DNA from: Nitrosopumilus sp.
Lineage (GTDB): Archaea > Thermoproteota > Nitrososphaeria > Nitrososphaerales > Nitrosopumilaceae
DNA: 64,000 bases
Direction: 5' to 3'
Assembly: GCA_965205425.1 (NCBI GenBank)
Contig: CBDBGZ010000005.1
Coordinates: 168,670 to 232,669, forward strand
Shown here: positions 38,467 through 61,742 of the stretch, one piece after another
Numbering within the stretch: the stretch's first letter is position 1
How the letters are laid out: each line of letters begins with the position of its first letter
The notes under the pieces: model-generated
What the model was told of the DNA's origin: nothing
Seen by the model: the letters and a program-made list of their open reading frames with translations, nothing else
Database searches by the model: none
Position numbers and translations under genes: made by a program

Positions 38467-38587
38467 GTTTAGAGATGTTAAATTGGGCATAAATATACGA
38501 TTCTCAAAAATAGAAAAATTCCTCAAATTATTGATAAATGAGAAGAATTTAGGTTGAAATTCAGTCTTAATCATCAAATGAAATTAT

Positions 38588-38788
38588 CCATGTGAATTGT
38601 TTTTATACATTTCCTCTCTTTCCATACATCAGGGCATGGCTTTCGCTAGAGAATGGTTTCAATCAAAAGATGGCAGACATGTATCCATACGAGACTATTC
38701 TCTCAATGCTATCTTCATCCTAGTTAGGATTATTCGCAGTTATCAGACGAGGCCTTGTCCCTCAAGCATTTTAACGCGACTTGCAGTC
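38588..38788 (-). ncRNA. Candidate IS110 bridge/seek RNA (non-coding region downstream of the recombinase)
   Basis: ~200-nt non-coding tract inside the element with stems and short matches to donor and target arms. Confidence 0.55.
38600..38614 (-). promoter_or_regulatory. BRE/TATA-like box at the IS110 right end (candidate circle-junction promoter)
   Basis: GGAAATG-TATAAAAA on the minus strand, 12 nt from the core. Confidence 0.45.
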
Positions 38789-39880
38789 CTAACTATAATT
38801 TTGCACAAATTCTCTCCTCTCCTTTAGCATCCAATAAATTACTCGCAGAATCTTTGATGCGCCAGCAACTGCATCTTTGGATGAACCTCTCTTCTTTTTA
38901 ATGCGATTATAAAATTTGGTAATGTCGCTGTTCTTGGTATGTATTGCATGGGTGTGTATGCATTCTGTTAGAACCCATCTCAATGTCATGCTTCCTCTCT
39001 TTGTAATTCTTCCATGATGTATTGTATCTGCAGAATTTCTCACCGATGGAACAATCCCTGCATATGCACATAACTTGCGAGAATTTGAAAATCTACTAAT
39101 CTCTGCAATTTCTGAGAATATGCTCAATGCAGTGTATGGTCCAACTCCAGGTATTGATGTCAAAATACACACATCAGGATTATCATTTACCATGCGACGT
39201 ATCATGGAATCTATTTTTGCAACCTCCTTTTTGTGAAATTTTATGCTTTGTAGGTACGAATCTATTCTATAACTCTCCAATTTTCCAAGTGCACGTATGT
39301 GTTCTGAGGAAAATGGTGTTGCTTTGATATGGATTCCCTCCTGTAGTGTAATACCATGTATGGAATTCTTCATCTTTACAATAATGCGCACAATCTTGTG
39401 TCGATGTCTTACAAGCTGTCTGTATTGCACAATTGTGTGATCTGGCACAAATGATTCTGCAATGTATCCTCCTCGTAGCAAATTTGCAAGATGGTACGCA
39501 TCAATTTTATCAGTCTTTTTGAGTGATGATGCTATTATCTTTGTGTTGTATGGATTAGATAGTATAACATCAAGATGTAATTTGTCTGTCATGTGTCTAT
39601 AAAGGCCATACCAGACAGATGATGACTCTAAAACATATTTTGCGTTCTTTGGAATTTTGGATGTAATTTTGCTAATAGCAGAAAAATCACTGGAAATCTT
39701 TTTGTTAAATAATAATTTGCCAATCTCATCTACTGCTGCCACCTGTACAGAGTTCTTGTGAACATCCAATCCTACAAACATCAAATATTTTTTTTCAGGA
39801 AGGGTAGTGTGTTTGTTTGCATTTCTTACTTTCTTGATACGAATGCAAGTACCATCTAATTTCCTAGCTGATTTTGGCAC
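38789..39880 (-). CDS. IS110 DEDD recombinase
   Basis: VGLDVHK, VLESS, KTDKIDA, SIPGVG, YAGIVPSVRNSA. Confidence 0.95.
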   Translation of the reverse strand: MPKSARKLDGTCIRIKKVRNANKHTTLPEKKYLMFVGLDVHKNSVQVAAVDEIGKLLFNKKISSDFSAISKITSKIPKNAKYVLESSSVWYGLYRHMTDKLHLDVILSNPYNTKIIASSLKKTDKIDAYHLANLLRGGYIAESFVPDHTIVQYRQLVRHRHKIVRIIVKMKNSIHGITLQEGIHIKATPFSSEHIRALGKLESYRIDSYLQSIKFHKKEVAKIDSMIRRMVNDNPDVCILTSIPGVGPYTALSIFSEIAEISRFSNSRKLCAYAGIVPSVRNSADTIHHGRITKRGSMTLRWVLTECIHTHAIHTKNSDITKFYNRIKKKRGSSKDAVAGASKILRVIYWMLKERREFVQNYS

Positions 39881-40083
39881 ATATGGTTATAGTTATTACA
39901 AAATAACAATTCATTATATTCTGATCAAGAAAAATCTCTATATCTTACAAATTCACATCCAAAGTAAAATTTTGGGCCACAGATAAAATTGGTAATCAAT
40001 GTCGAATTGCGTTAGGCGATTACCAAAATCCAGCTATTCCATGGCAATATTGATGCTTTGATTATTCTTTTAAAATAAAAAAA

Positions 40084-41494
40084 GTAACTGTCTAGAGTTT
40101 TGAAGTACTTTCTTTAATATTTTTTATCTATATCTTTTCTGATCAGTGACAAATTACAATATACAATTGTCAGTATATGATGAGCTGGAATATTATCGTA
40201 ACAGATGTCACTCGTTGGAGCAAGAAAACCGTCAGTTACGCAAAGATATTGAATCACTACACAGAGAAATTGCAGAACTAAAACAAACAGTGTCTACACT
40301 TGTTGCAAGAAATATCAAAGCAAAACCAAACCAGACTGAAACTGCAAAAAAGAAGAAAACATCAAGACATCCTAGAAAAAGCAGAAGCAGACGGGCACAC
40401 ATTGATGATGCCATTACAGTTGACCAAAAAGAGTGCAACACATGTGGCAAATCACTCTCAGAACCAACTGATTCATACACCAGAATAGTAGAAGACATCA
40501 TTCCTGCAAAAGCAGTTGTGACAAAATATACGATAGTTAGACGATACTGCACAAACTGCAAAAAACAAATCTCGGGTAACATTCACACTGTACTGTCAAA
40601 TGAAAGGTTTGGAATTAGGCTCATGGTGCTAATCACATCACTAAAAACTATCGGATTATCGTATGGTAAAATATCTCATCTTTTGCAGATGCTCTTCTCA
40701 CTGCACATTACAGAATCTGCAATTAATCATGCAGTATCAATAGTATCAAAAGCATTTGGGAGCAGATATGATACAATGATTGTAGAGTTAAAAGAAGATC
40801 TAAACATACATGGTGATGAGACAAGTTGGAGGATAGATGGCCAGAACCACTGGTTGTGGGCATTTGTGAGTAAATGGACTGTAATTTACGAGATTGACAA
40901 ATCACGTTCAATGGATGTTCCCAAGAGAATTCTCAAGGAGTATAATGGCAACATTACAAGTGATTCGTACCCTGCATGGAACCATGTTGGAACAACTCAC
41001 CAGAAATGTCACATCCATTATCTCAGAGAGGTTAATGATACCATTAATCACAAGAATCCCGGACCAGAATTTGCACCATTTGCCAAGAATCTCAAGAAAA
41101 TAATTTATGACTCTCATGGTGTGGCAAAAATAAAATCAGAATCAGAAAGAATCCATGCAAAAAAGAATCTTGAAAGGAGAATTAATCACATCATATCAAA
41201 AAAATACACAGAGAAAAACTGTATCAGGTTTGTAAAAAGATTGAAACGTGAGAGAAAAATGCTTTTTACATTCCTAATTACTGGAACTGATTCACACAAT
41301 AACACAGCAGAGAGGGCAATCAGACCAAATGTGATAATTCGTAAAATTACAAACGGTCATAGAACCATTCATGGTGCCGATTCTCATAAGATACTGATGA
41401 GTATAAAGGAGACATGCAGATTACGAGGATTAAACTTTCATGATTATTCTTTAGAATATCTTGGAGATTTTACTTCAAAACTCTAGACAGTTAC
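40084..41494 (+). mobile_element. IS66-family IS, TnpC-only (ISBst12-like)
   Basis: Perfect 24-bp IR GTAACTGTCTAGAGTTTTGAAGTA; 8-bp TSD TAAAAAAA. Confidence 0.93.
40146..41486 (+). CDS. IS66 transposase TnpC
   Basis: Coiled coil, CxxC pairs, HGDETSW, QKCHIHYLR, NNTAERAIR. Confidence 0.92.
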   Translation: MTNYNIQLSVYDELEYYRNRCHSLEQENRQLRKDIESLHREIAELKQTVSTLVARNIKAKPNQTETAKKKKTSRHPRKSRSRRAHIDDAITVDQKECNTCGKSLSEPTDSYTRIVEDIIPAKAVVTKYTIVRRYCTNCKKQISGNIHTVLSNERFGIRLMVLITSLKTIGLSYGKISHLLQMLFSLHITESAINHAVSIVSKAFGSRYDTMIVELKEDLNIHGDETSWRIDGQNHWLWAFVSKWTVIYEIDKSRSMDVPKRILKEYNGNITSDSYPAWNHVGTTHQKCHIHYLREVNDTINHKNPGPEFAPFAKNLKKIIYDSHGVAKIKSESERIHAKKNLERRINHIISKKYTEKNCIRFVKRLKRERKMLFTFLITGTDSHNNTAERAIRPNVIIRKITNGHRTIHGADSHKILMSIKETCRLRGLNFHDYSLEYLGDFTSKL

Positions 41495-41603
41495 TAAAAA
41501 AAGTGTTTTAAAATTGATTCAAGTAATTTAAAAAAAACCCATTGAGCCTATCACTGGTAATTCAATGGAAAGTTTTAGGTAGTATCCTATTTCTGATATA
41601 TCA

Positions 41604-42506
41604 TTGAAAGCAATTTTTGTATTGATAATTGTAGCTGGAATATTTGGATATGCCTGGTATGCTGATTTACTTCCATTTGGGTTTGAAAAATCTTCAACTG
41701 GTTTATCTCCTTCAATAGAAAAAATACAACAAATTTCTAACGTTGTCACTTCAGAGGAACACCAAATCATTTACTATTCATTTGAGGATGTACGCGATGT
41801 TCCAGATGAACAAATTCCTGTTAATGCATTAAAAAAAGCAATTGATTCGTGGGAAAAATCAAATCCTAATTTAGAATTTATACAATCTGAAAATTCTAAC
41901 ATTGAAATTAAATGGCAAAAATATGCTTCATCTACTCATACTGGTTTAGCAAAATGTAATTCTGTTCTCTTTGGAATTCTAAGTCATTGTGTATTAGAAA
42001 TTTCTATTGGTGCAGAAGATTGTAATTCTGATTTTGTTCAAAATGATGAAAACATGGTGGCAAATATTTTGATGCATGAAATTGGTCATGCATTGGGTCT
42101 AGGTCATACTAGTGAAGAAAATCATTTAATGTATTCTACAGAGTCTCCTGAAATACAATATGATACTCATGGATATCATATTCCAGTTAGATTTGAAGAA
42201 CTCTACGTTGGTCAAAATTTGTTATTGTTTAATGAAAAAGAATTAAAATCTCAAATAGAATTACTGGATACTAAAATTTCTAGAGAAGAATCCCAATATG
42301 ACGAATATTACAAACAATACGAATACTATGAAGAAAAAACTCTTTCTCCAAAAGAATATGAAAAAGCTGAAAAAGCATTTACAATATTAACTTCCCAGGG
42401 AGAAAAAATCAATGCGTTGATTACAGAACAAAATGAACTAATTGATCAAATAAATGAAATTGTAAATCAGTTAGGTTGTAATCCTAATTTTGATGTTACT
42501 TCTTAA
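41604..42506 (+). CDS. Matrixin (M10-like) Zn metalloprotease, membrane-anchored or secreted
   Basis: HEIGHALGLGH plus Met-turn LMY; N-terminal TM; C-terminal coiled coil. Confidence 0.88.
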   Translation: MKAIFVLIIVAGIFGYAWYADLLPFGFEKSSTGLSPSIEKIQQISNVVTSEEHQIIYYSFEDVRDVPDEQIPVNALKKAIDSWEKSNPNLEFIQSENSNIEIKWQKYASSTHTGLAKCNSVLFGILSHCVLEISIGAEDCNSDFVQNDENMVANILMHEIGHALGLGHTSEENHLMYSTESPEIQYDTHGYHIPVRFEELYVGQNLLLFNEKELKSQIELLDTKISREESQYDEYYKQYEYYEEKTLSPKEYEKAEKAFTILTSQGEKINALITEQNELIDQINEIVNQLGCNPNFDVTS

Positions 42507-42580
42507 CCAAATAACAGAACTAATCCTACAATTAATGCTGATACTGAAATTCCCATCCACACATAAAATTTTGTCATCAT
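42503..42580 (-). CDS. 25-aa single-TM peptide
   Basis: MMTKFYVWMGISVSALIVGLVLLFG. Confidence 0.4.
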   Translation of the reverse strand: MMTKFYVWMGISVSALIVGLVLLFG

Positions 42581-42623
42581 CGTAAATTGTTGATTTTCTC
42601 TGAAATTAATAGTTTAAAATTGA

Positions 42624-42706
42624 GAAAGCAAGCAAGTTTGATATCTGTTATCATCGGCCCTTTGGGGGTTACAGTTAGATATCAAACAAGCAATCATCTT
42701 GCTTTC
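42624..42706. ncRNA. Candidate long-hairpin ncRNA
   Basis: Nested perfect stems of 9 bp and 11 bp plus an apical CCC/GGG stem. Confidence 0.4.
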
Positions 42707-43054
42707 AATATTTGTATTGATTAGTATTTTCAAAAATTCTTAAAATAAAACATGTCTTGAAATGTGATCAAAAAGGGTTGAAAAAATGATCTATTTCTGA
42801 TTATTTTAAAATCTGAGCCTAGTGATGAACAAAATCACTCATCTAACAATTTTGTTCATTATGGACACACATTTTCTTTTAGACTAATCTGTTAACTCAT
42901 AATAGAGTCATTTGTTTGACGGCGTCATACATTTGCCTTATCTGACCATGCCTTAGAATTCGTTTGCCGTCAAACACTCTTTCTTTAAAGAAACATTGTG
43001 GTTCTATGTCTTTAAAAGAAAAATAATTTTATTCTCATACATTTCAGTCCCTTT

Positions 43055-43591
43055 ATGGGTGAAAACATTGTTTTGCAATGGAATCCAGATTTTACTCTAA
43101 AATGGTCTGATTTTCAAGCCGAATCTAACCCTGCTGTATATGAAGACTCACACAGTGTCATAAAATATCGATTCACATGGACTGTAAATTCTGACAAAAT
43201 AGATGCTGAAATTGTTTTCTTGATTGAAAACATATGCATATTTGTAGAATTTCATCCGTTACTTTCTTGGGTTAGATTATCTGATGCAGATATGCAGTTA
43301 CTCCACCATGAACAAGGAACTTTTGATTTGGCTGAATCTGTAAAACGTGAAAATATCAAAAAATTGCAAGATATTTTTTACAACAAACATTTCTCTACAC
43401 GTGGTCAAAATGAAGAGCAACGAAAACAATTTGCAAAAGAAGATTCTGGAAAAATGATAAATTTGGAAGTTGAAAAATTACAACAATTGTTTGATGAAAA
43501 ATGTCTAAAATACAAAGATGATACAAATCATGGTCAAAATTCACAGGCACAATCAAACTATGATCTAATTTTTAAACAATTAAAAATATAA
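43055..43591 (+). CDS. DUF922-like putative Zn protease
   Basis: LKWSDFQ, SWV, LLHHEQGTFDL, DTNHG. Confidence 0.7.
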   Translation: MGENIVLQWNPDFTLKWSDFQAESNPAVYEDSHSVIKYRFTWTVNSDKIDAEIVFLIENICIFVEFHPLLSWVRLSDADMQLLHHEQGTFDLAESVKRENIKKLQDIFYNKHFSTRGQNEEQRKQFAKEDSGKMINLEVEKLQQLFDEKCLKYKDDTNHGQNSQAQSNYDLIFKQLKI

Positions 43592-43645
43592 TTTGTCTTG
43601 CAGTGTAATCCCATTTGTTATATCCTAATTCTAAAATATTATTTT

Positions 43646-43789
43646 ATGGAAACTGCAAAGTTGTCGAAATTTAAATGGCATGAATTATCTGAACATAACT
43701 CTGGCCATACTCCTAGTGAATGGGGGTTGCAAAAGAAAAAATCAAATCCTAAAACTTTTGTATCTTACACTGTATCGTGGGATGATTAG
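43646..43789 (+). CDS. Small hypothetical protein
   Basis: METAKLSKFKWHELSEH...VSWDD. Confidence 0.5.
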   Translation: METAKLSKFKWHELSEHNSGHTPSEWGLQKKKSNPKTFVSYTVSWDD

Positions 43790-44052
43790 GATCTATTTTC
43801 TATAATTTTATTTTCAGGAACTGAATTAATATAATTCACAAGACTTCTATAATATTTTAAATGGAAATCTAAATCTCTGATTTCTGTTTGTTTCAATTCT
43901 TCAAGTTCTGGACCAAAATCTGTTTTATTTGTTTGAATGTGATTTAATGTAGTTTCATTTACTTCAATCATGTGAAATAAACTGTGAAGCACTTCCCCTT
44001 TTGTTAGAGTTCTATTGCATGATTTTTCTAATATTTTTTCAACCCAATCCAT
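43786..44052 (-). CDS. Hypothetical protein
   Basis: 88-aa ORF. Confidence 0.65.
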   Translation of the reverse strand: MDWVEKILEKSCNRTLTKGEVLHSLFHMIEVNETTLNHIQTNKTDFGPELEELKQTEIRDLDFHLKYYRSLVNYINSVPENKIIENRS

Positions 44053-44139
44053 ATTATTTCTTAAAATTATTCTTATATCCCCTCCAGAATTTGAATAATT
44101 CTGACTTTAGCTCTATTTTTTTAGTCTAGTTTAAAATAA

Positions 44140-44271
44140 TTATTTTTTTCCAGCTTTCTTTTTCCTATTCATGATTTCTTTGTTACGCTCATTATCTGAA
44201 TGAACTTCTACATGATCATACAAATCTTCTTTTGAATCAAATAGTTGCTCACAATAGTAGCACTGATGCAT
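44140..44271 (-). CDS. C2H2 zinc-finger microprotein (43 aa)
   Basis: CYYC-x3-F-x5-L-x2-HVEVH; hand-translated. Confidence 0.65.
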   Translation of the reverse strand: MHQCYYCEQLFDSKEDLYDHVEVHSDNERNKEIMNRKKKAGKK

Positions 44272-44382
44272 TGCTAAATTACAGTCATCTTAGATAAATT
44301 GCTTTTCTTAAAAAACCAGTAGTTTGTTCCTAACTTGATATAATAAAAATTGAAAATAATGTGGATGATAATCTGGACTAGA

Positions 44383-44625
44383 TTATCTTCCATTTTGTTC
44401 TCTAACTTTTTGTGCTAAGTCGCCAAAAGGATCCTCGTGCCATTTTTCCCTATTCAAATCCGCTCCCAAAGCTCCTGTTTTTGGTAAAAGTCCTTCTTCT
44501 GCTGCGTGTGATAAAACAGCATCTTCTGGAATGTAATTTTTTTGGTTTTCAGTACCATATGCAATTACTGCACCCATTGCAATAACGCCTACGGCAATTC
44601 CAATGTAAATCATCGCGTTTGACAT
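44383..44625 (-). CDS. Small membrane-anchored protein
   Basis: N-terminal TM, 80 aa. Confidence 0.65.
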   Translation of the reverse strand: MSNAMIYIGIAVGVIAMGAVIAYGTENQKNYIPEDAVLSHAAEEGLLPKTGALGADLNREKWHEDPFGDLAQKVREQNGR

Positions 44626-44688
44626 GAAATAATATATTGTTTTTTTCTATTAATCATGTAAGACTTCAGTGCAATGCAGTGAAATTAT

Positions 44689-45006
44689 CTAATGTGTTTC
44701 TATCTTAATTTCTCCATTACAAATAGGAATATTCCCAGTTTGATTTTTAAAATCTTCAATTAATTGCAGTTTCATCTCTTTTGGATTATCTGAAAATACT
44801 CTCTGATAGAATGATGTTTTTTGTTTACATTCATCGCCTTCAAATTCTGTATCTACATATTTTGCGAATTTTGCTTCCAGGCTATCTGTTTCTCCAATGA
44901 ATATTGCATCTCGATTTCTATTATACAAGACATATACTCCTGGGTTTGGTTTCACATATTGGGAGCTATCTGTCCATACTCTCATTTTATCATCTAATAA
45001 TTCCAT
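44689..45006 (-). CDS. GIY-YIG-like small protein
   Basis: PGVYVLY...IFIGE...L...P.CN. Confidence 0.6.
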   Translation of the reverse strand: MELLDDKMRVWTDSSQYVKPNPGVYVLYNRNRDAIFIGETDSLEAKFAKYVDTEFEGDECKQKTSFYQRVFSDNPKEMKLQLIEDFKNQTGNIPICNGEIKIETH

Positions 45007-45105
45007 GATCTAACATAGTAATACTAGATATTAAACTAGATTACAAAAATTATGATACTCCAATAACCCTTATGCTTTTAATACTAAGTAAAAAAAGATG
45101 TAATC

Positions 45106-46785
45106 CTGTCTTTACTAGAAAAATTCCCGGATCATTTTACTCCTAGAGGAATTCAAAAAGAGATCATTTCTCAAATAGAAGAGAAATTTAAATCTGGATT
45201 CAAGAAAATTATTTTATGTGCACCTACGGGTGTTGGGAAATCTCTTGTAGGTGCCACTATCTCAAATTACTTTGATAGCTCATTCACAGTAACTGCATCA
45301 AAACATCTTCAAGATCAATATATCAAAGATATCCCCTTTCTGAAACCTGTCAAAGGTAAGCAAAATTTTTCCTGTCTGAAACTTATGGAATCTGAAAAAG
45401 TTGATAATGATAGAAGGGCTATGAGATGGGGTTTAACTTGTGATAAAGGTGAATGTCAAGAAAGAGTCTCAAAAAATGGTAAAGAAGTCTTTGACGTCTG
45501 TAAATTCAAGCCTACACTAAAACAAGTAGAAGATAACACTACTGATGCCAAATCATGTCATTACTATATGCAAAAATATGATGCCCTAGTTTCCAATCAC
45601 TCTCTTTGGAATTACCATGCATTTTTTACTATTATGAAATTCAACAAAAAACTCTTTGAGGACTATCTTGATAGAAAAGTAACTGTTTTTGATGAAGCTC
45701 ATAAAATTGAAGATCAAATTATTCAGTTTGTTGGTTTTGATATTTTTGCAGGTCAAGTTGATGAATGTAATCTAAATTCAGAAAAATATGATTTTACCGA
45801 TTTGGATTCTATGATTCAGTTAACTGATGATATGGCATTTTCATATGCCAAAAAAATTAAAGATATCAAAGAAAGTGCATCTTTTCAAAATGATCCTGAT
45901 TATGAATTACTTACAGGATTAGAAAGAAGACATGATAGATCTGCACAGGCTAAAATTGATATTATGACTGACAAGGATAATTTTATTGTAAATGATCCTG
46001 TTAAAGATTTGAATGGAAATTTTAGAACAATTTCTGTTAAACCTATTGATGTTTCAAAGTTTGCAAATTCTTTTTTTGAAACAGAATATCAATTATTCAT
46101 GTCTGCTACAATTGACAAAAATAGTTTTTGTGAAAATATGGGATTGGTAAAAGATGATGTTGCATTTGTTGATACACCAAAATCTCCTTTTCCAATTGAA
46201 CATAGAAGTATAGATCTTCTAAACATTAAGAGACTTAGCTATGGCTCTACTGAAGAAGATGAACTTGAAGTCATTAAAACAATTGATAGAATAATGGATG
46301 AACATTCAAACGAGCGTGGGTTAATACTTACCTCATCGATTCCTAGATGTCAAAAGATTATCCGCTATCTTTCTCCAAAAAATACTCAAAGAATTAGACT
46401 ATGTCATAGTAAAAACAAGGATGACAAAACTCAGGATGAGGTCATTTCTGAACATGCAACTGATCCTACCGGAGTTCTATTGTCTTCTTCTTTGTGGGAA
46501 GGTGTTGATTTGAAAGATGATTTATCTAGGTTTCAAATTATTGCTAAAGTCCCATACCCTAATTATACTGAAAAGAGAACAAGAGCAAAAATGAATAAAT
46601 TCCCTTTATGGTATACTTCACAAACGTTAACAAAAATTCTACAAGGATTTGGTCGTTCGATTCGAGGTGATGATGATTGGGCAAAAACATATGTTTTGGA
46701 TACAGCCGTAAACAATGTCTTCTTTAAAGGTCAACCAATGATTCCAAAAGCATACTATGATGTTTTAGGTATGGATAGTATTTGA
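45106..46785 (+). CDS. DinG/Rad3-like SF2 helicase (probable CTG start)
   Basis: Frame is open from 45088 and contains Walker A APTGVGKS upstream of the called ATG; DEAH, SAT, WEGVD, QGFGRSIR. Confidence 0.88.
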   Translation: MSLLEKFPDHFTPRGIQKEIISQIEEKFKSGFKKIILCAPTGVGKSLVGATISNYFDSSFTVTASKHLQDQYIKDIPFLKPVKGKQNFSCLKLMESEKVDNDRRAMRWGLTCDKGECQERVSKNGKEVFDVCKFKPTLKQVEDNTTDAKSCHYYMQKYDALVSNHSLWNYHAFFTIMKFNKKLFEDYLDRKVTVFDEAHKIEDQIIQFVGFDIFAGQVDECNLNSEKYDFTDLDSMIQLTDDMAFSYAKKIKDIKESASFQNDPDYELLTGLERRHDRSAQAKIDIMTDKDNFIVNDPVKDLNGNFRTISVKPIDVSKFANSFFETEYQLFMSATIDKNSFCENMGLVKDDVAFVDTPKSPFPIEHRSIDLLNIKRLSYGSTEEDELEVIKTIDRIMDEHSNERGLILTSSIPRCQKIIRYLSPKNTQRIRLCHSKNKDDKTQDEVISEHATDPTGVLLSSSLWEGVDLKDDLSRFQIIAKVPYPNYTEKRTRAKMNKFPLWYTSQTLTKILQGFGRSIRGDDDWAKTYVLDTAVNNVFFKGQPMIPKAYYDVLGMDSI

Positions 46786-46793
46786 TTAAAAAA

Positions 46794-46994
46794 TTAAAAT
46801 TTTCTTTCTGAACAATTGCATTTTACATAAACCATTTTGAATTCTCCATCTGATTTTACGTTATGTGACATTGGTTTTCTGCATTGTTGGCATTCATTAA
46901 ATCCAAAATATTCTTCAACTTTAATGATTTTGTAATCCCATGATTTTCTCTCTTCGTTCCAAAATACCGAATTTATTTCAGATGGTCCATCCAT
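46794..46994 (-). CDS. Small Zn-ribbon-like hypothetical protein
   Basis: CQQC...CNC. Confidence 0.6.
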   Translation of the reverse strand: MDGPSEINSVFWNEERKSWDYKIIKVEEYFGFNECQQCRKPMSHNVKSDGEFKMVYVKCNCSERKF

Positions 46995-47028
46995 ATATTC
47001 AATAAATTTAGATTCATTAATTAATTTT

Positions 47029-47241: not shown

Positions 47242-47286
47242 TAATTTTCCTTGATAATTTCTAACTTAAGTTTAATCCTTGGAATT

Positions 47287-53051: not shown

Positions 53052-53183
53052 TAGCGAAAAGACAAAGTTCGTGAACTAAATAATTTCAAAAAACTAGGAA
53101 TCAGTTGATCTTGCCTATAGGTAAATACGAATAAACAAATTGAAACACCTAAAAAATAACTCACGAACTTATGCTTCTCGCTA
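53052..53183. mobile_element. MITE copy 3 (132 bp, diverged variant)
   Basis: TA-flanked, same ends and internal GGTAAATACGAATAAACAA as copies 1 and 2. Confidence 0.88.
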
Positions 53184-53263
53184 TATGTTCTATCATTGCC
53201 ATTTAGATGATAATCCATTTGTTGTTTCAAATTTATAATCTTCTTAAAATATTGATTTTTGTT

Positions 53264-53656
53264 TTATTGTTTAGTAGGATCCTTGCTCAAAATATTCAAC
53301 ACATGTTCAATAATCTGTTTTTGACCTCCTTCATGTACATCTGTTCTTACTACATCTGAACCCATACTAACAAAAATTAAATTTTTATCACCTAGTGGAA
53401 ATGTCATTCTTGTAATTTTTTCAAATGTTGCAACTGCATACAATCCATGACCTATTTTTGGAGCCAATTCATTCCTACCTTTCCATGCTACTGATGCTCT
53501 CTTCAATGATGCAGCTGTTTCTTCTGTCGATAGATAATTTGTAATCCCTTCTCTGTGACTTGTGGCTAAAATATTGCCCTCACTATCTGTAACTAGACTA
53601 TGTCTAATATTTACATCCGAATTCATTATTCTTTTCAAGAGATTTTCAAAATTCAT
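53264..53656 (-). CDS. Roadblock-like (DUF6659-type) protein
   Basis: IRHSLVTDSEGNIL...KIG...FEKITRMTFPL. Confidence 0.7.
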   Translation of the reverse strand: MNFENLLKRIMNSDVNIRHSLVTDSEGNILATSHREGITNYLSTEETAASLKRASVAWKGRNELAPKIGHGLYAVATFEKITRMTFPLGDKNLIFVSMGSDVVRTDVHEGGQKQIIEHVLNILSKDPTKQ

Positions 53657-53715
53657 CTCAATTTGTTACGTCAAAATAATACTTAAGATCTACCTCTAAA
53701 ACCATACGTAGGTTC

Positions 53716-53874
53716 TTATTCTGATGATAATTTACATTCAAAATATTCTGTTATCGTATTGTTGAAATCTTCTAGTTGTTGTTGATCTGCAAATCCTGAT
53801 TTTTCAAGCAATTTCCACGATTTTTCTATTTCTTCTTTTAACACATACAAAGTTCGCTTATCATCACAGTGCAT
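53716..53874 (-). CDS. Small hypothetical protein (52 aa)
   Basis: MHCDDKRTLYVLKEEIEKSW...; hand-translated. Confidence 0.55.
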   Translation of the reverse strand: MHCDDKRTLYVLKEEIEKSWKLLEKSGFADQQQLEDFNNTITEYFECKLSSE

Positions 53875-53912
53875 ATTGTTATTATTTCAAAATAGAATTT
53901 AATCTTTGTAGT

Positions 53913-54971
53913 CTATAATGTAGATTCAACAGGGACTGATATTTTCTTTTTAGCTAATTTTACAGCTAGTATTCCCATTATGGCCCCAGGTATGCTCATC
54001 CATCCTAAAATCATTAGCAGTGTTTCTGAAAATTCTGGTAATAGAGAATACCCTGACACTCCACTGAATACATAAAATTGAATGTATGCCATTCCCACTA
54101 ATGGCATGCTATACACTAAGAATACAGCTCCAACTATGGCCCCAGATGCTATCTCGCCAAATTTACCAATTTTAATTTTATTTGTTAAAATCCCGTCTGC
54201 AATTATTGCAACAATCATTGGTAAAACATACCATGGTAAATAATTCCACAAGGCCTCTGCAGGAATCACATTTGCTGTAATGTTAAAAAATATCAGTAAT
54301 GCTGTCACCGAACTTGCCCAACCAAATTTTCTCATTGACTTTGATGCTCCCCAGAAAATTAATGCGCTGAAAAATGGCATAGTTACTGCTAAAATAACTC
54401 CTGCAACATATGGATCTGGATTAAGATTTATCGTTTCTCCTTTAGATATTGGCAAAGTGAATTGGAAAATAAACGCAATAACGATAAACCATAATGCTGA
54501 AAATGAAACTACTGTTGCAGGTTTTACAATTTTGAAATTATGTGGAATCAATCTTGTTAATCCCACCATAATTCCTACTGATTGTATCAATATACCTGTG
54601 ATTAAAGTAAGATGAGTTGGACTAAGTAATCCATCCGTTCCAAACAATTCGTGCCATGTATAGTCACTTGGCCCTGCAAAGATCTGAATTACACTTCCAA
54701 CTATGATTAGCTTCATTCCTAATGATAGTGACGAATTACGTAATTCTCGATTTTTAAATAATGTCACACTTGCAAGAATTGCTGCAATTACTCCAATTCC
54801 AACTCCTGAATACAATACTGTGTGTGGTGGTGAAAAAAATGTCTCAGGTGCTCCAAGTAAATGAGTTGTTATGTCCCAACTTCCGCCCCAAATTTCTAAA
54901 ACACTTCCTACTAATGATAAAATGAAAATAAATACAATAATTTTTGATGGTTTGTTCATACACACAAACAA
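53913..54971 (-). CDS. Polytopic membrane protein with two D-x3-H-x12-H motifs
   Basis: WDITTH...FFSPPH and SDYTWH...LLSPTH; about 9 TM segments; start may be 54959. Confidence 0.85.
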   Translation of the reverse strand: MFVCMNKPSKIIVFIFILSLVGSVLEIWGGSWDITTHLLGAPETFFSPPHTVLYSGVGIGVIAAILASVTLFKNRELRNSSLSLGMKLIIVGSVIQIFAGPSDYTWHELFGTDGLLSPTHLTLITGILIQSVGIMVGLTRLIPHNFKIVKPATVVSFSALWFIVIAFIFQFTLPISKGETINLNPDPYVAGVILAVTMPFFSALIFWGASKSMRKFGWASSVTALLIFFNITANVIPAEALWNYLPWYVLPMIVAIIADGILTNKIKIGKFGEIASGAIVGAVFLVYSMPLVGMAYIQFYVFSGVSGYSLLPEFSETLLMILGWMSIPGAIMGILAVKLAKKKISVPVESTL

Positions 54972-55354
54972 AAATATGAGTTTATGAATATTGTTAATTA
55001 AAAAAAATTAATGCCTTAGATATTTCTAAAGCTGGTCGTCGGTGTTACCTGATTTGTTCATTTTACACCAACAATTTGGGCTACAAATTGAATTAAAACT
55101 TGACATTTTAATCATCAGATACTAGCCAAGAAAGGCCAATTGCTTCTTCCCAATTTGATTGATAATTGTTATCTTGCATATTTCACTCTGGTAAAATTTC
55201 TATTTAATATCGATGAACGATTTGTTAGTATGATTTCTCAGTATCAATTAGTAGTGATTCTTTATATTAAATTTGAAGTGTACATAGTACCAGACCATAC
55301 CTGGTGACGATTCAAATCCTAGATTCATTTTTGAATCTCACCTTTTTCTTAATT

Positions 55355-55816
55355 CTAAGAATTTGCTGATTTCTCGTAATAGTATTCTTGCCTTTTCAAA
55401 TCTTTTTCTGAAATAATTCGACATTTACGCATTGGAACTAGTCGTGAAATTTGTTCATACGTATTCATATCTCTGACATCTGCAGCATATGCAATTTGTA
55501 ACAATGGTGATTTTTCTTCAATCATTGGTTTTGCCTGTTCATACCCACCACTTTGCCTCATACCTGTTCTAAATAATCCTAAATGGTTTTCATTTTTTGA
55601 AATTAACGGATCTTGATATACACAAATTGCAAATTCATCATTTTCTTTTTCAATAATTGTTAGTCTGGTAAATTTATCGCTCCAATCTTCTATTTCTTTG
55701 GCAATGGACATGGCCTCTTTTTTATCCTCAAATACAGTGGATACTACCAATCTGTCTTTTTCATATGCCCAGGAAATACCGTAGAAATTCTTTTTCCAAT
55801 TAATCTCTAATGACAT
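55355..55816 (-). CDS. Hypothetical protein
   Basis: 153-aa ORF. Confidence 0.7.
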   Translation of the reverse strand: MSLEINWKKNFYGISWAYEKDRLVVSTVFEDKKEAMSIAKEIEDWSDKFTRLTIIEKENDEFAICVYQDPLISKNENHLGLFRTGMRQSGGYEQAKPMIEEKSPLLQIAYAADVRDMNTYEQISRLVPMRKCRIISEKDLKRQEYYYEKSANS

Positions 55817-56044
55817 GAATATTGGTAAAAAAATATCAAATTAATGCTTTCTAATTATTTTGTTTCATCACAGTCGACATCGTGATCTCCAGAATGAGCT
55901 ATGTCTAACTCACATCTGCAATTATTTTTTCTAAAATAACATCTTGGTGGCATTGGAAAAAACATGATAATTCCACTTTCCTAGGTGGAATTAAACCCAT
56001 CCTCCAAATTACATCCAAATCTATACGTAAAATAAAAAATGTGA

Positions 56045-56276
56045 CTAGCATGTTTTGTCACATTCACATTGTCGACTAGTAAACAAATTCTTGAATGTTT
56101 CAAATTTTGACTGATCTATTGTCGGTTTTTGTCTTCCGACAATTTTGAATAGATTAATTCCAGTCTCAGCGCTAGTTCCTTTGTGCCCACGATCCATTTT
56201 TCATTAGATATGGTTGTGGGTTCTTCATTGACACTTTTTTTCGTACTTTGATATCGTATGCCTCTATTTTTGACAT
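56045..56276 (-). pseudogene. DUF5679/CC1-like small basic protein, frameshifted
   Basis: MSKIEAYDIKVRKKVSMKNPQPYLMKNGSWA / KGTSAETGINLFKIVG; frameshift near 56183. Confidence 0.6.
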
Positions 56277-56562
56277 GTGCCATTATGGAGAAATTACTAT
56301 TACTAATTCAAAGTAATTTTTTTCTTATTCATTAGCTGAAAAAATCTTTGAACTTGGTCGTGAGAAATTTACTGTTCCCTCAAAGTACATAAATTCATTT
56401 TTTTGCCATCATACTAAAAATAATAATTATTTTTTAATCTAAATTAAACAAATGTTTGGAAAATGAATAATTCTTCTTTTATATCTCGAGCCTGTAAAGT
56501 CATTGACGCCTTCGTTTAGTGGTCTAGGCATGCTATAAACGACCACTATTCCAAGTCGTTGA

Positions 56563-56709
56563 TTATCGTTTTTTTAACAAAGCATCTTCAGGTGTTTTAT
56601 TTTTATTTGATTCCCAATGCCAACTATGATGTTTCTTCCAGTGCGTCTCTAGTTCTTCTGTAGTTGGTTTTTTCCCTAATGGGGTTCCGCATAATTTACA
56701 CTGTATCAA
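56563..56709 (-). CDS. C2H2-like zinc-finger microprotein (48 aa)
   Basis: MIQCKLCG...LETHWKKHH; hand-translated. Confidence 0.6.
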   Translation of the reverse strand: MIQCKLCGTPLGKKPTTEELETHWKKHHSWHWESNKNKTPEDALLKKR

Positions 56710-56834
56710 TTTTTACATCCTTTGACTTTTTCTTTTTTGATTTTGTAATTGGATGACATTGTACAGGTAAATTTTCATTTTCCATGTTTTAATCTAATGA
56801 TGATTTGAAATTAAGAGTTTGCATTGTGTATTGA

Positions 56835-57164
56835 TTATTTCTTTTTGTTTTGGTTTTTATTTTTATATTTGTCTCGTTTTCTTTTTATTTCCATATCTTT
56901 TATGACGTATACTTTACCTGTCTCACAAAGTTTCATTTCTCCTGTATGTTCATCATGAATAGAATCAAATAATCCACTCGATAATAATTCCCCAACAATA
57001 CTCCATGCCATATCTGCAGATACATCAAATTTGTATGAAATGGTAGATACTTTGGTAAAAAAACCGTTTTTTGAATTTCTAATTACAAACTGTTCTACTT
57101 TTTGTTCCGTTGTTAAACTTGGTTCACGCTTTTTGAAATTTCTATATGGTTTGTTATCTGACAT
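56835..57164 (-). CDS. Hypothetical protein (possible wHTH)
   Basis: 109-aa ORF with basic tail. Confidence 0.65.
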   Translation of the reverse strand: MSDNKPYRNFKKREPSLTTEQKVEQFVIRNSKNGFFTKVSTISYKFDVSADMAWSIVGELLSSGLFDSIHDEHTGEMKLCETGKVYVIKDMEIKRKRDKYKNKNQNKKK

Positions 57165-57172
57165 TTTTTATC

Positions 57173-57760
57173 TCAAGCCTCAACATTAATTGTATCAGGA
57201 TCATTATTTCCTGGCATGTATTTGTTTCCTAATTTGTTTTTCATTTTCTCATCAAATTCTTCTTGTAATCTGGTAAGGTACATCTCAGCCTCTGTTTCGT
57301 CATCTGGAATACCTGTATCTGTGTCGAAATTAAATCCTGTTGCCAAATGATAAAACTCCTCAAAAAATTCTTTACAGTCAATCACGTCTGCCTTTTCATC
57401 AATTACAGCTATTAGACAATCGTTTTCTATTCTAAAATTGAGACAAATTTCTTCTTCAATCATGACATCGACCATGACTGACATGAGATATGTTATGTAT
57501 TTTTTATCTAATTTGCCCTCGTCTTTGTCCGCAATCCATAATTCATTTCCGTCCAAAAAATCATCAAAAGTTCTAACCATCATCTCTCGAATGTCTGAAT
57601 CTGGATGAGACAATTTTGATTTCCAAGATTCAAAATTCCCATATTCTGCATATACTGCATCAAATGTTAAATTTTCATTAATCTGTTCAAATTCCCAAAT
57701 TTCTCTATTAGTCCACATGGGAGAAAATTCTGAAATTAATTTTCTAGTGTTTTGATCCAA
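57173..57760 (-). CDS. Acidic hypothetical protein
   Basis: 195-aa ORF, D/E rich. Confidence 0.65.
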   Translation of the reverse strand: MDQNTRKLISEFSPMWTNREIWEFEQINENLTFDAVYAEYGNFESWKSKLSHPDSDIREMMVRTFDDFLDGNELWIADKDEGKLDKKYITYLMSVMVDVMIEEEICLNFRIENDCLIAVIDEKADVIDCKEFFEEFYHLATGFNFDTDTGIPDDETEAEMYLTRLQEEFDEKMKNKLGNKYMPGNNDPDTINVEA

Positions 57761-57802
57761 TGTTTTTGTTGTTTTTTATCCATTGTTTAATCTTATCTTG
57801 AA

Positions 57803-58036
57803 CTAATTGTTAATTCCTGATTTGAGAAATTCCAATGTACATTCTGCTAATTCCTTACTGGAGTGTTTCTTGATATTATGTTTGCAATTAGGACATATTC
57901 CTGATTCCTCATCTGAGAATCCTTCTCCAACCTGTTTCATACAACATTCCATCAATTCTTCAGTTGAATGTGATTCCATTGCAAGTTTGCATGTGGGGCA
58001 TTCTGTCAAATTATAACAGTATGAAGATAATTTCAT
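57803..58036 (-). CDS. Small protein with a duplicated CPxC-x5-H-x7-C motif
   Basis: CPTCKLAMESHSTEELMEC / CPNCKHNIKKHSSKELAEC. Confidence 0.65.
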   Translation of the reverse strand: MKLSSYCYNLTECPTCKLAMESHSTEELMECCMKQVGEGFSDEESGICPNCKHNIKKHSSKELAECTLEFLKSGINN

Positions 58037-58074
58037 TGTTAATAAATTATATTTGATTTTTTAATAGAATCAAT

Positions 58075-58253
58075 ATGAATTTGAACCAAAAATTCCAAAA
58101 TAAATTACATTGTATTTGTAACGAAGATGTAGTTTTTGAAATTATTGAGGATATAGAATGTGATTGGGGAACTCATCTTGTAATTCAATGTCCAAAATGT
58201 GAAGAATTGTTTTCTGCTGATTGTGAATGTCCTGCTTTTGGAAATATTCTAAA
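58075..58253 (+). pseudogene. Cys-rich protein gene truncated by IS110
   Basis: HCIC...QCPKC...CPAF then runs into IS110 sequence at 58254. Confidence 0.65.
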
Positions 58254-58381
58254 TTATCCATGTGAATTGTTTTTATACATTTCCTCTCTTTCCATACATC
58301 AGGGCATGGCTTTCGCTAGAGAATGGTTTCAATCAAAAGATGGCAGACATGTATCCATACGAGACTATTCTCTCAATGCTA

Positions 58382-59527
58382 TAGTTAAGGCATTAAATAT
58401 TTGAATAATTTCACAACTCGAACGTCTCCATTATCTAATCTCTTCTGCATGTGTTTTCTCATCTCAGTTCCATTTACAAAGAATGTATTGGCATTACCAT
58501 TTTTCTCTTCTCTCCACTGTACCTCAATTGGATTGAGTTCTGGGGTGTATGCAGGAAAATATCTTATGATTACATTTCTTTTTGATACCTTGAGAAATTC
58601 TTTTACTCTAACACTTTTGTGGTATGATGCATTGTCTGCAAATAATAACAGTTTCTTGCCAAATTGTTTCTGCAAGGATTTTAAGAAATCAAGAAATGAG
58701 TCTGTGTTTGATTTATCATAGAACCTACAAAAAAATACGCCGTCATCCCCCAATGCACCAAATGATTGAAATTTTTCTCGAGTGTAATTAATTGGTGTGG
58801 TAATGTTATTGCCTGCAAGATACCATCCGCGCTTTATGTTAGGTGCTATCTTGTTTGTTGACTCATCCAGACATAGTGTGATATGTCCCAATTTGGAATA
58901 TTTTTTGATACTCCTTTTTGCGTTTTTTTAAAACGGGTTTGTTCCTCTTTTGAGGCTGATTTGTGATGTGTGGGACGTGGTTTTTTTGATGAGAATCCAA
59001 TTCTGTGCAGCAATTCACGCATTCCTCTTGCAGAGTATAGGGTGTTGTATTTTTTATTCACATGTGTAATTACCATTCTTGTACTCCACATGAATTGGTT
59101 AAATCCAAACTTTTCTGGACCTGAAATTAGATCATTTCTTAATGATACTAGCTGTTTTTCATTTAGAAAACATCTAGAACCAGAATATTTCTTGCGGTGT
59201 GATGCAGATATTCCCTCTTCATCCATTCGATTTAGCCAGTAGGACAGAGTTGATGGTATGACATCCAGACTTGCACATATCACAGAATACGGAATATTTT
59301 GTTTTCTTAGTATTGCAGCCTTTAATCTTATCTTTGCTTTTGCATTTTTTTCATTCTTGCATACTTTTCTTAAAAAATTAATGCTTGTACCTTTCATGAA
59401 TTGATTTCCAGAGGAAACCTTGGATTGTCTTGTACTCTTTGACATGGTTTCATGAATTGATTCTACGATCTAGATCTTTTGAGTTAAAATACTTGACAGT
59501 TTATTCAAAATTTATATGCCTAAACTA
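58382..59527 (-). mobile_element. IS630-family IS type B, copy 2 (inside the IS110 non-coding region)
   Basis: 1146 bp, TA duplication at GC-TA-TC; ORFs 58846-59445 and 58385-58891. Confidence 0.92.
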
Positions 59528-59606
59528 TATCTTCATCCTAGTTAGGATTATTCGCAGTTATCAGACGAGGCCTTGTCCCTCAAGCATTTTAACGCGACTT
59601 GCAGTC

Positions 59607-60698
59607 CTAACTATAATTTTGCACAAATTCTCTCCTCTCCTTTAGCATCCAATAAATTACTCGCAGAATCTTTGATGCGCCAGCAACTGCATCTTTGGAT
59701 GAACCTCTCTTCTTTTTAATGCGATTATAAAATTTGGTAATGTCGCTGTTCTTGGTATGTATTGCATGGGTGTGTATGCATTCTGTTAGAACCCATCTCA
59801 ATGTCATGCTTCCTCTCTTTGTAATTCTTCCATGATGTATTGTATCTGCAGAATTTCTCACCGATGGAACAATCCCTGCATATGCACATAACTTGCGAGA
59901 ATTTGAAAATCTACTAATCTCTGCAATTTCTGAGAATATGCTCAATGCAGTGTATGGTCCAACTCCAGGTATTGATGTCAAAATACACACATCAGGATTA
60001 TCATTTACCATGCGACGTATCATGGAATCTATTTTTGCAACCTCCTTTTTGTGAAATTTTATGCTTTGTAGGTACGAATCTATTCTATAACTCTCCAATT
60101 TTCCAAGTGCACGTATGTGTTCTGAGGAAAATGGTGTTGCTTTGATATGGATTCCCTCCTGTAGTGTAATACCATGTATGGAATTCTTCATCTTTACAAT
60201 AATGCGCACAATCTTGTGTCGATGTCTTACAAGCTGTCTGTATTGCACAATTGTGTGATCTGGCACAAATGATTCTGCAATGTATCCTCCTCGTAGCAAA
60301 TTTGCAAGATGGTACGCATCAATTTTATCAGTCTTTTTGAGTGATGATGCTATTATCTTTGTGTTGTATGGATTAGATAGTATAACATCAAGATGTAATT
60401 TGTCTGTCATGTGTCTATAAAGGCCATACCAGACAGATGATGACTCTAAAACATATTTTGCGTTCTTTGGAATTTTGGATGTAATTTTGCTAATAGCAGA
60501 AAAATCACTGGAAATCTTTTTGTTAAATAATAATTTGCCAATCTCATCTACTGCTGCCACCTGTACAGAGTTCTTGTGAACATCCAATCCTACAAACATC
60601 AAATATTTTTTTTCAGGAAGGGTAGTGTGTTTGTTTGCATTTCTTACTTTCTTGATACGAATGCAAGTACCATCTAATTTCCTAGCTGATTTTGGCAC
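59607..60698 (-). CDS. IS110 DEDD recombinase, copy 2
   Basis: Protein identical to 38789-39880. Confidence 0.95.
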   Translation of the reverse strand: MPKSARKLDGTCIRIKKVRNANKHTTLPEKKYLMFVGLDVHKNSVQVAAVDEIGKLLFNKKISSDFSAISKITSKIPKNAKYVLESSSVWYGLYRHMTDKLHLDVILSNPYNTKIIASSLKKTDKIDAYHLANLLRGGYIAESFVPDHTIVQYRQLVRHRHKIVRIIVKMKNSIHGITLQEGIHIKATPFSSEHIRALGKLESYRIDSYLQSIKFHKKEVAKIDSMIRRMVNDNPDVCILTSIPGVGPYTALSIFSEIAEISRFSNSRKLCAYAGIVPSVRNSADTIHHGRITKRGSMTLRWVLTECIHTHAIHTKNSDITKFYNRIKKKRGSSKDAVAGASKILRVIYWMLKERREFVQNYS

Positions 60699-60710
60699 AT
60701 ATGGTTATAG

Positions 60711-61674
60711 GGCCTTGTAGAAACCATCTGATTTTAACCCAATTGTGATACATTTTAGCTAATTTAGATCCATTAGGATTGTATTTGCAGATTACAGTAT
60801 GGTCTCATCATACGTCAAAATGTGCAAAACACTACTCAATATAATCACCAGATGCAGAATTCCCAGGTTCTTACATCCAAAATCAAATCATATCTATTCT
60901 GTTTGGACACATCTCATACTCTTGGCAATACGACAGTACGAATCAAAGAGTTATAGAAGATTTACAGAATTTTTAGAAGAATGTGTAGGAATTCAGGAAT
61001 ATCTTGGTTTGTCTACCATTCCACATTACACCACACTACAAAAGGCAGCTGCAAGACTGGAAGGAAATCTGTTACATAAAATGTTGCAGGAATTCATTTT
61101 GTACAAAAAAGTCAGACTGGTTCTAGCTGGAATTGATGGTAGCGGATTCAGTTACAGTACAGCATCATACTATTATACAAAAAGAGTACAGTTACGCAGG
61201 AATTTCCTAAAAGTTGTTGTTTGTGCTGACATGAATACACAGCTTGTTTGCTGTGTCATGACACACCACAACATGATAATCCTGATTTTCTGCCATTGTT
61301 GTACAAAACCAACAATATTGTTCCAGTTGATATTGTGTTAGGTGACATGGGTTTTGATGATGAGAATAACCATGTTGGTGCAGAACAGATCAACACAGCT
61401 GCAATAATTCCAACTCGATATGGAACAGTTCCAATTTACAGAACCAGTGGAATTCATAGAAAGGAGATGAAGAGGAACTTTCCTGTACAATTGTACCATC
61501 AGAGAAACAAATCTGAAACAATCTTTTTTGTGATCAAACAGATAATGTCAGGAGATGTCACATCAAGAAATGTTACAACTCAGGACAATGAGATGTTGTA
61601 CAGGTTAATTGCATACAATTCCTACAGGATTAGAAAATTAGATTTTGTTATTTTATCATGGTTTCTACAAGGCC
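60711..61674 (+). mobile_element. IS5-family IS, copy 2 (964 bp), frameshifted transposase
   Basis: IR GGCCTTGTAGAAACCAT; 8-bp TSD GGTTATAG; one CAACATG unit missing relative to copy 1. Confidence 0.92.
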
Positions 61675-61742
61675 GGTTATAGTTATTATTGTTGATTTCT
61701 TTAGGAGAATAAAATCTCAATACTATTTGGAAGATGTCAGGT

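Follow-up and report, generated by a model that had tools for sequence, protein, structure and literature searches.

Features of the locus

The window, i.e. the whole stretch of 64,000 nucleotides of a Nitrosopumilus sp. genome that was analyzed, carries an 18.4-kb segment between two direct-repeat copies of an IS110-family element. The copies, already recognized in the initial annotation and confirmed here, extend over 38585..39892 (copy 1, minus strand) and 58255..61682 (copy 2, minus strand), and sequence comparison showed them to be 100% identical over the parts in common. The transposase of copy 1 (363 aa; 38789-39880) contains the DEDD (RuvC-like) and Transposase_20 domains (PF01548 and PF02371, both above cut-off) and matches NF033542 (226 bits vs a cut-off of 140). 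The non-coding stretch on the 3' side of the transposase ORF measures 203 bp and is long, as in elements of the IS1111 type. Copy 2 is broken up by two nested elements, one of the IS630 family (element b) in its 3' non-coding region (58380..59529, minus strand) and one at its right end that we take to be IS5-like (60711..61674, plus strand; 8-bp duplication GGTTATAG).

To the left of copy 1 lies the ORF of threonine-tRNA ligase, thrS (36598..38577, minus strand; NCBIfam PRK03991 and TIGR00418 above cut-off, and synteny), which had been taken as the 'A-left' side of the insertion. It is separated from the element by the intergenic left half of an IS110 target site, site A (38578..38584, plus strand). 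To the right of copy 1, the 3' part of a Cys-rich gene, here called gene B (39893..39967, plus strand; 24 codons and the stop), opens block X2 (39893..47517), which contains genes for a matrixin-like peptidase and a DinG/XPD-like helicase, hypothetical genes and an IS66-family element with a matched 8-bp duplication (40084..41494, plus strand). Block X2 is followed by an IS630-family element a (47518..48596, minus strand), an accessory piece of ~1.0 kb (48597..50742; an 80-aa ORF and a 117-aa HTH ORF) interrupted by another IS630-family element b (49545-50694), and an element that is presumably of the ISH3 family (50743..52062, plus strand; Pfam DDE_Tnp_1), which forms the joint from X2 to block X1 (52063..58254). 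The 5' part of gene B (58075..58254, plus strand; 60 codons) closes X1. Beyond copy 2 lie the 80-bp right end of a second ISH3-like element (61683..61762, plus strand) and a metallo-beta-lactamase-fold gene (61827..62894, minus strand) with a 90% paralogue on contig C9. No tRNA or Rfam match at gathering score was found in the window.

Thirteen repeats (from the window and contig C8) account for 10.5% of the genome, and the region is scrambled at many IS families, IS110 not alone. The ISH3 and IS110 copies are mosaics of common variants, which suggests repeated exchange between copies. A crossover point could not be located from sequence variants, neither for IS110, where copies 1 and 2 do not differ and all others are mosaics, nor for ISH3.

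Ends and insertion register of the IS110 element

The register was tested with an unrearranged copy on contig C9, compared with the relatives G012 and G017, and with the thrS site, compared with G012 and G019. In these three genomes the empty target contains three T's (AAATTTAT), and filled sites have two T's on each side, a single T being shared. These alignments show that the family uses a preferred target without target-site duplication, the one shared T being assignable to the element. The target at the ISH3 end is a misfit, its empty copies carrying one T fewer. A sub-terminal inverted repeat of 11-13 bp is absent from the element; the best one is 7 bp long with one mismatch and is placed asymmetrically, 3 and 6 bases in from the element ends. 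A three-base common core at the ends was also considered and was rejected, since it gives no full-length gene B and the empty sites of the relatives disagree with it.

The split gene B

According to the initial annotation, the gene at 58075 is cut at copy 2 and its C-terminus lies right of copy 1; the tails of its homologues and a contig of a related strain bear this out. The cut falls at 58254, and positions 39893-39967 encode the true C-terminus. Of the 17 relatives with a match, 15 have the gene intact; counted by loci, 16 of 18 (15 of 17 genomes) have an in-frame matching tail, and the remaining two are broken copies. In X4 and X6 (two of the four runs examined, X4, X6, X7 and X8, out of 12 runs listed; short-word contigs), 58254 is followed directly by 39893 on a contig from a strain that is ~94% identical. 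Because it comes from the ~94% strain, this contig shows the ancestral state and not the state of the strain studied here. The earlier caveat that the join is one A short of the frame dissolves as an artefact of where the IS110 ends had been drawn: the IS1111-like element makes no target duplication, and the join is therefore in frame. In the true register it yields an 84-aa ORF, which aligns gap-free in 9 of the 10 loci compared (8 of 9 genomes). Gene B was found in 17 of 24 members of the genus searched and in none of 16 genomes outside the family. Its 60-aa part has no Pfam or NCBIfam family, and the intact homologue in G012 has no NCBIfam family.

The thrS site

The ATG at 38578 had been read, together with the right flank of copy 2, as the start of a signal-peptide gene. 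This candidate was rejected by an early stop (after 11 codons, or 22 in the true register) and by the thrS junction of the relatives. Nor is the right flank of copy 2 the missing half of the thrS site ('A-right'), as had been supposed; positions 61683-61762 are the last 80 bp of the second ISH3-like element, and the genome has four further occurrences of this end, one of which follows a different IS110. The thrS-side flank runs on in relatives into DNA now found at C4:23667 onward, to the right of a third IS110, a MITE-truncated half copy. In 5 of 6 relatives the join of thrS with the C4 sequence is matched across the breakpoint, scoring 437-541 vs 200-254 for either flank in the window; the exception, G020, is without the matching stretch. 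The metallo-beta-lactamase-fold gene has only weak (67-79%) partial matches in relatives and is thus regarded as accessory DNA unrelated to the thrS site. The layout accordingly reads as A-left[IS]B-right...B-left[IS]Z-right and not as ...[IS]A-right. Since the outer flanks of the segment fail as two halves of a single target, at least three IS110 loci took part.

Origin of the 18.4-kb segment

Compared with its relatives, the segment is circularly permuted: all six relatives compared have the order X1-X2, and in all six both blocks are syntenic and chromosomal. In relatives, X1 follows the sequence at C2:39232, and the segment lies 27-30 kb from thrS. A query spanning the end of X1 matched 109 of 150 other genomes of the genus, a few of them via the IS part only. 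None of its scanned ORFs codes for an integrase or replication protein, and the segment is neither missing from relatives nor plasmid-like, as a cargo island would be. It is native, ordinary chromosomal DNA and not an incoming element. Its only patchy part is the ~1-kb accessory piece, present in 10 of 120 genomes; from 48950 on, G093 has this piece uninterrupted by element b, at 99% identity. The IS families and the accessory piece of G093 are 95-99% alike to those studied here, whereas its native DNA is just ~82% alike, so that G093 is not a sister strain.

The right-side 5-bp duplication (AAATC) of the ISH3-like copy at 50743..52062 pairs with the left flank of the ISH3-like copy at C2:37912-39231, which is the scar at the donor locus. 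Both products of an ISH3 exchange are present in the assembly, the duplication being divided between the window and contig C2, and the empty site aligns gap-free to G012 over 202 nt. Together with its reciprocal counterpart on C2, the joint at ISH3 would also offer a way of circularizing the segment.

Probable exchanges between IS copies

We consider it probable that the arrangement is genuine and specific to this lineage, the organism's own chromosome having been reshuffled by exchange between IS copies. The relatives show the ancestral order to be C2 block, X1, gene B, X2 and next C2 block, with thrS about 25 kb from these, beside the C4 block. Two proper targets are occupied by IS110, one within gene B and the other upstream of thrS, and an ISH3-like copy adjoins the start of X1; a second ISH3-like copy may once have lain on the far side of X2. 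A crossover between ISH3 copies and another between IS110 copies would move X beside thrS and open it within gene B, the simplest means being homologous recombination by RadA across 1.3 kb of nearly identical sequence. In a later exchange with a further IS110 copy, the native partner of thrS would have been replaced by the ISH3 end. It is the ISH3 joint, with its duplication split between the window and C2, that points to two exchanges (ISH3 with ISH3, IS110 with IS110) plus later swaps.

The initial annotation had explained the swapped flanks at IS110 by the integration of an 18.4-kb circle. The exchange of flanks and the permutation of the segment stand; the outer flanks are not one site, and the segment is native. 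Two features that the circle model calls for are present, namely identical direct-repeat IS copies around the segment and a permutation with a scar at the donor locus. The route is not readable from the product, however. One possibility is a circle released at ISH3 and inserted at IS110, another is a pair of overlapping inversions, the first at IS110 and the second at ISH3, and a third is unequal exchange between sister chromosomes; because inversions, a different circle or unequal exchange yield the same layout, integration as a circle is not implied. Two observations stand against the simple scheme of exchanges. The two sides of the putative second ISH3-like copy lack a matching duplication, which implies more events than those reconstructed, and copies 1 and 2 are identical, yet the C4 half copy differs from them at 2 positions, which no single crossover explains.

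That the RNA-guided recombinase of IS110 itself catalyzed the exchange seems rather unlikely. In that case a head-to-tail dimer at the thrS site, with an intact donor junction, would have reacted with an empty target in gene B, a single step that inverts or integrates and leaves two identical copies with swapped flanks. Copies 1 and 2 agree with this, as they are identical and carry variants that most other copies lack (the other full copies in the genome are 95-98% alike), and so do the A and B joints, which lie exactly at the target register with zero flank loss, and two longer composite IS110 copies elsewhere in the genome. Inversions, translocations and tandem duplications at bacterial IS110 loci are reported by Hu et al. 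(10.64898/2026.08.14.744561). Matched flanks were found in just 2 of 8 IS110 copies vs 47 of 78 copies of four DDE families together, a difference that is not significant (Fisher p = 0.07; copies not independent) and is a weak hint of an IS110-specific process. In the counts of ISH3 flanks, unpartnered ends (6 left, 9 right) are omitted. Against catalysis by the recombinase, no dimer junction was found in the genome (G000). Plain excision, in which the left junction of one copy meets the right junction of a second, would yield a hybrid joint free of any IS, unlike what is observed, and two recent sister copies followed by homologous recombination give the same sequence. Recombinase catalysis is thus possible, and is not something that sequence alone can show. 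It is likewise a doubtful reading that the thrS/gene B exchange and the 2 of 8 matched flanks are traces left by an RNA-guided IS1111-type recombinase of archaea that rearranges the chromosome of its host under natural conditions.

A misassembly, in which the interleaved IS110 and ISH3 repeats permit an alternative path through the graph, is improbable. It would fit the observations that undoing both joins restores the order of the relatives around X, that IS110 copies 1 and 2 are 100% identical, that the window ends at a contig end within a repeat in an assembly of 9 contigs with 5.23% contamination, and that the runs containing the strain of the window contain a second strain too. However, flanks were correctly paired at longer, equally identical repeats: all six two-ended IS66 copies, the element in X2 serving among these controls, carry matching 8-bp duplications (a 1-in-720 outcome if ends were paired at random), and matched duplications also occur in 14 of 23 IS5-like copies and in 19 of the 30 members of a 1,042-bp family. 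Furthermore, 22 differences separate the two ISH3 copies, whose longest identical stretch is 166 bases, and a three-way IS110 misjoin would be needed, one within the final ~180 bp of the half copy on C4. In the short-word contigs of runs X4, X6, X7 and X8, flanks were not pairable across the 1.3-kb repeat, and the 15 of 24 joints listed include no IS110 circle joint.

A foreign or self-mobile circle of 18.4 kb that integrated via the IS at one site and split a signal-peptide gene would agree with the identical direct-repeat copies and the permuted gene B, but is highly improbable in view of outer flanks that are not a single site, an ORF that ends after 11 codons, the chromosomal synteny of X1 and X2 and the wide occurrence of the X1 end described above, and scanned ORFs that include no integrase or replication protein.

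Relationship to known systems

The exchanges between IS copies favored here resemble IS-copy recombination in IS-expanded genomes, such as an IS1 evolution experiment with E. coli (PMC12065110) and the ISH3-rich Sulfolobaceae (PMC13343696), in which blocks moved between copies, target duplications were separated, elements were nested and multi-step routes were unreadable from the end state; here, in contrast, one pivot is an IS110/IS1111-like element without target duplication, in an ammonia-oxidizing archaeon. The translocatable unit of IS26 (PMC4196232, PMC4676283) shares the geometry of the circle model, a segment with one IS entering beside an existing copy to give an IS-segment-IS direct repeat, but differs in that here the transposase is of another family, the outer flanks do not form a single site, a housekeeping region makes up the cargo and a circle was not observed. 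Relocation of native DNA lying between two copies of IS110 is also described for ISPpu10-Cargo-ISPpu10 (10.64898/2026.03.19.712850) and by Hu et al.; unlike at such IS110-bounded cargo loci, there is no duplication here, the flanks are swapped instead of intact, and the other joint is a second IS family. The element itself is like the IS1111-family seekRNA elements (PMC11187229) in its DEDD transposase, 3' non-coding region, preferred target, lack of added bases and asymmetric ends (3 and 6 bases outside the short inverted repeat), and unlike them in the length of this repeat (7 bp with one mismatch vs the usual 11-13 bp).

No IS110 flank exchange in archaea was found among titles and abstract openings, in a search that covered few subscription papers, and the word 'archaea' is absent from the main text of Hu et al. 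(10.64898/2026.08.14.744561). The rearrangement is most likely ordinary reshuffling in an IS-crowded genome and not the arrival of a foreign circle. As such, it is a well-resolved example of IS-driven scrambling and shows that loss of a conserved 84-aa Cys-rich gene can occur. The exact insertion register of this archaeal IS110 family, without duplication, is now fixed, which aids the reading of its guide RNA. If the recombinase did make the swap, the case would matter more, as an archaeal bridge/seek-RNA system would then have rearranged a chromosome in nature.

Gene order of the segment

In all six relatives fetched, a block that in the source Nitrosopumilus genome (2.2 Mb, 9 contigs) lies on contig C2 is followed by X1 (52063-58254), X2 (39893-47517) and the next C2 block, with the thrS block about 25 kb away and in the same relative orientation as in the window, the right edge of which coincides with the contig end. 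In the source genome the two C2 blocks adjoin around an ISH3-like copy, and X2 precedes X1 across another ISH3-like copy (50743-52062); X2 is separated from the latter copy by an IS630 element and by an accessory piece of 1 kb that occurs in 10 of 120 genomes. The order X1-X2 is ancestral, and the 18.4-kb segment X, judged from synteny, is native chromosomal DNA that is circularly permuted in the assembly.

The 5-bp duplication AAATC is divided between the left side of the C2 copy and the right side of the window copy; it also begins one other ISH3 right end in the genome, and synteny selects the window copy. The reconstructed empty site aligned with the comparison genome G012 over 202 nt with no gap, which together with the split duplication indicates that the genome contains both products of an ISH3 exchange. 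The remaining two flanks of these copies are mismatched, so additional events took place. Beyond X, most neighbour relations over 220 kb of G012 are broken in the source genome, at several IS families.

IS110 copies and insertion register

Copy 1 (38585-39892) and copy 2 (58255-61682), which is interrupted by an IS630-family element within the 3' non-coding region and by an IS5-like element at the opposite end, differ at no shared base, while the four remaining full-length copies in the genome are 95-98% alike. Both Pfam domains of IS110 are present in the transposase, which passed the NCBIfam cut-off. The two flanks of a copy on C9 are adjacent in G012, G014 and G017; the empty site has three T's (G012, G017) and the filled site two on each side, and the thrS target, empty in G012 and G019, has three T's too. 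A single T is therefore shared and belongs to the element, which thus inserts without target duplication. The exception is the target behind copy 2, an ISH3 end with one T fewer in its empty copies. The register deduced from these sites agrees with PMC11187229, in which ISEc11 insertion adds no bases and element ends extend beyond the inverted repeat by 7 and 3 bases, or by 6 and 3.

Different IS630-family elements occupy an identical position in the IS110 3' non-coding region, the proposed guide-RNA site, at window 58380 and C9:75607. A 2.67-kb composite that combines a partial variant of IS110 with some 0.6-0.8 kb of other DNA and with a second IS110 is present in two copies 98.6% alike (C9:245994-248655, C8:46859-49517) and may have moved as a single expanded IS110 unit. 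Positions C9:1144810 and C9:484949 both lie behind an IS110 right end; adjacent in G012, G014 and G017, they are 660 kb apart in the source genome, which marks a further IS110-linked breakpoint. The IS110 right halves C4:23022-23663 and C4:98336-98975 have the same start position and are each preceded by a MITE; no left half matching them turned up in the assembly.

The divided Cys-rich gene

The initial annotation held that the Cys-rich gene at 58075 (gene B) is cut at copy 2 and has a plausible C-terminus right of copy 1, and this was borne out. Of 40 relatives, 17 carry a homologue of its 60 codons (17/24 within the genus, 0/16 outside the family), and a tail resembling 39893-39967 continues in frame at 16 of 18 homologue loci (15 genomes), the other two being broken; the match between loci extends past the stop codon. 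One contig links 58254 to 39893 in two (X4, X6) of four sequencing runs examined, and the X4 contig differs at 27 positions in 427 nt, so it derives from a related strain with the whole gene. The concern that the join is one A short of being in frame falls away, since without duplication the single-T register gives an 84-aa ORF, aligned without gaps at 9 of 10 loci.

A conserved element of about 85 nt follows the gene (39968-40083, minus strand), with a TATA-like box, immediately upstream of which lies an IS66 copy, and then a GCCA/TGGC-closed stem with an inner hairpin of 7-9 bp and a conserved loop word. It aligned at 19 of 22 homologue loci tested, gave no Rfam match at gathering score and is possibly a small non-coding RNA.

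The thrS flank

The proposed reciprocal join, of the ATG at 38578 to the flank right of copy 2 as a signal-peptide-like start, did not hold: the ORF stops after 11 codons, and the 80 bp bordering copy 2 on the right form the terminus of a second ISH3-like element, which recurs at four other places, in one of them with a further IS110 at the identical base. The DNA on the upstream side of thrS runs on, in relatives, into sequence now at C4:23667 onward, which adjoins on its left a third IS110, a half copy truncated by a MITE; this intergenic join was aligned over the breakpoint in five of six relatives. Given these two partners, at least three IS110 loci have traded flanks. Of the postulated integration of a circle, the permuted segment stands, with the circle as one possible route, and the single-circle account is not supported.

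A metallo-beta-lactamase-fold gene (61814-62924) has a paralogue 90% identical at C9:430692-431802, and 48 bp of the accessory module reappear 2 kb from that paralogue (C9:428618-428665).

Insertion sequences of the genome

Thirteen repeats, drawn from the window and from contig C8, make up 10.5% of the genome, a lower bound on its IS content. The labels ISH3, IS5 and IS630 for window elements are our presumptive assignments from domain content and end structure; the Pfam matches are DDE_Tnp_1 and DDE_3. The target duplications of a 1,042-bp integrase-core (rve) element (5410-6451), which has about 30 full copies, are unusually long at about 15-16 bp, and some copies with mismatched flanks can be paired crosswise with inverted copies nearby (e.g., C4:147690 with C4:175956). 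The genome G093, only about 82% alike in native DNA, shares the IS66, ISH3-like, IS630 and IS110 families (95-99% identity) and the accessory piece of 1 kb (99%), which suggests that the species have recently exchanged mobile DNA. PMC13343696 puts the upper end of archaeal IS content at about 15%, a value seen in a Nitrosopumilus genome, and links remodelling in Sulfolobaceae to ISH3.

Origin of the rearrangement

Two exchanges, ISH3 with ISH3 and IS110 with IS110, would be enough for X. ISH3 direct repeats could release X as a circle, which, as initially proposed, would integrate through its IS110, by recombination with the thrS copy. Alternatively, two overlapping inversions could act, the first between ancestrally opposed IS110 sites, yielding the thrS-X2 joint, and the second via ISH3 copies, by then opposed, yielding the X2-X1 joint, each intermediate being an entire chromosome; or sister chromosomes could exchange unequally. 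All three give an identical final sequence, and a later exchange would have placed the ISH3 end behind copy 2. The whole rearrangement is probably explained, without special chemistry, by homologous recombination over 1.3 kb.

An unlikely alternative is that the IS110 recombinase itself acted, the donor junction of a tandem dimer reacting with an empty site in gene B. This would account for the identity of copies 1 and 2, and Hu et al. (10.64898/2026.08.14.744561) describe tandem copies, inversions and translocations at IS110 loci, in a main text that lacks the word 'archaea'. Part of 10.64898/2026.03.19.712850 reports native segments >100 kb between ISPpu10 copies, its authors leaving open whether the IS is the driver, and part of PMC13626964 reports that IS621 inserts more efficiently than it excises. 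Flanks judged from host-repeat empty sites and relatives match in just two of eight IS110 copies having both ends, one of the two with a variant host end, against 6/6 for IS66, 14/23 for IS5-like, 19/30 for the 1,042-bp family and 8/19 for ISH3, but the difference has a Fisher p of 0.07 over non-independent copies, and no dimer junction is present in the assembly. A variant, excision between hybrid junctions of two copies, was rejected because it would leave a joint without an IS. The chance that natural RNA-guided recombination is recorded here in an archaeon is modest.

Interleaved repeats such as these IS110 and ISH3 copies are a classic assembly trap, and the old order returns once both joins are undone; misassembly is nevertheless quite unlikely, as flanks are correctly paired in all six IS66 copies (identity among the five of 1,411 bp being 99.9-100%), 22 differences separate the two ISH3 copies, with no identical run above 166 bases, and an IS110 misjoin would need to be three-way.

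Read as a reshuffle of the organism's own chromosome by exchanges between IS copies, and alongside the complex IS-driven rearrangements described for E. coli in parts of PMC12065110, the rearrangement would be a further case of IS-mediated scrambling, which is a known process.
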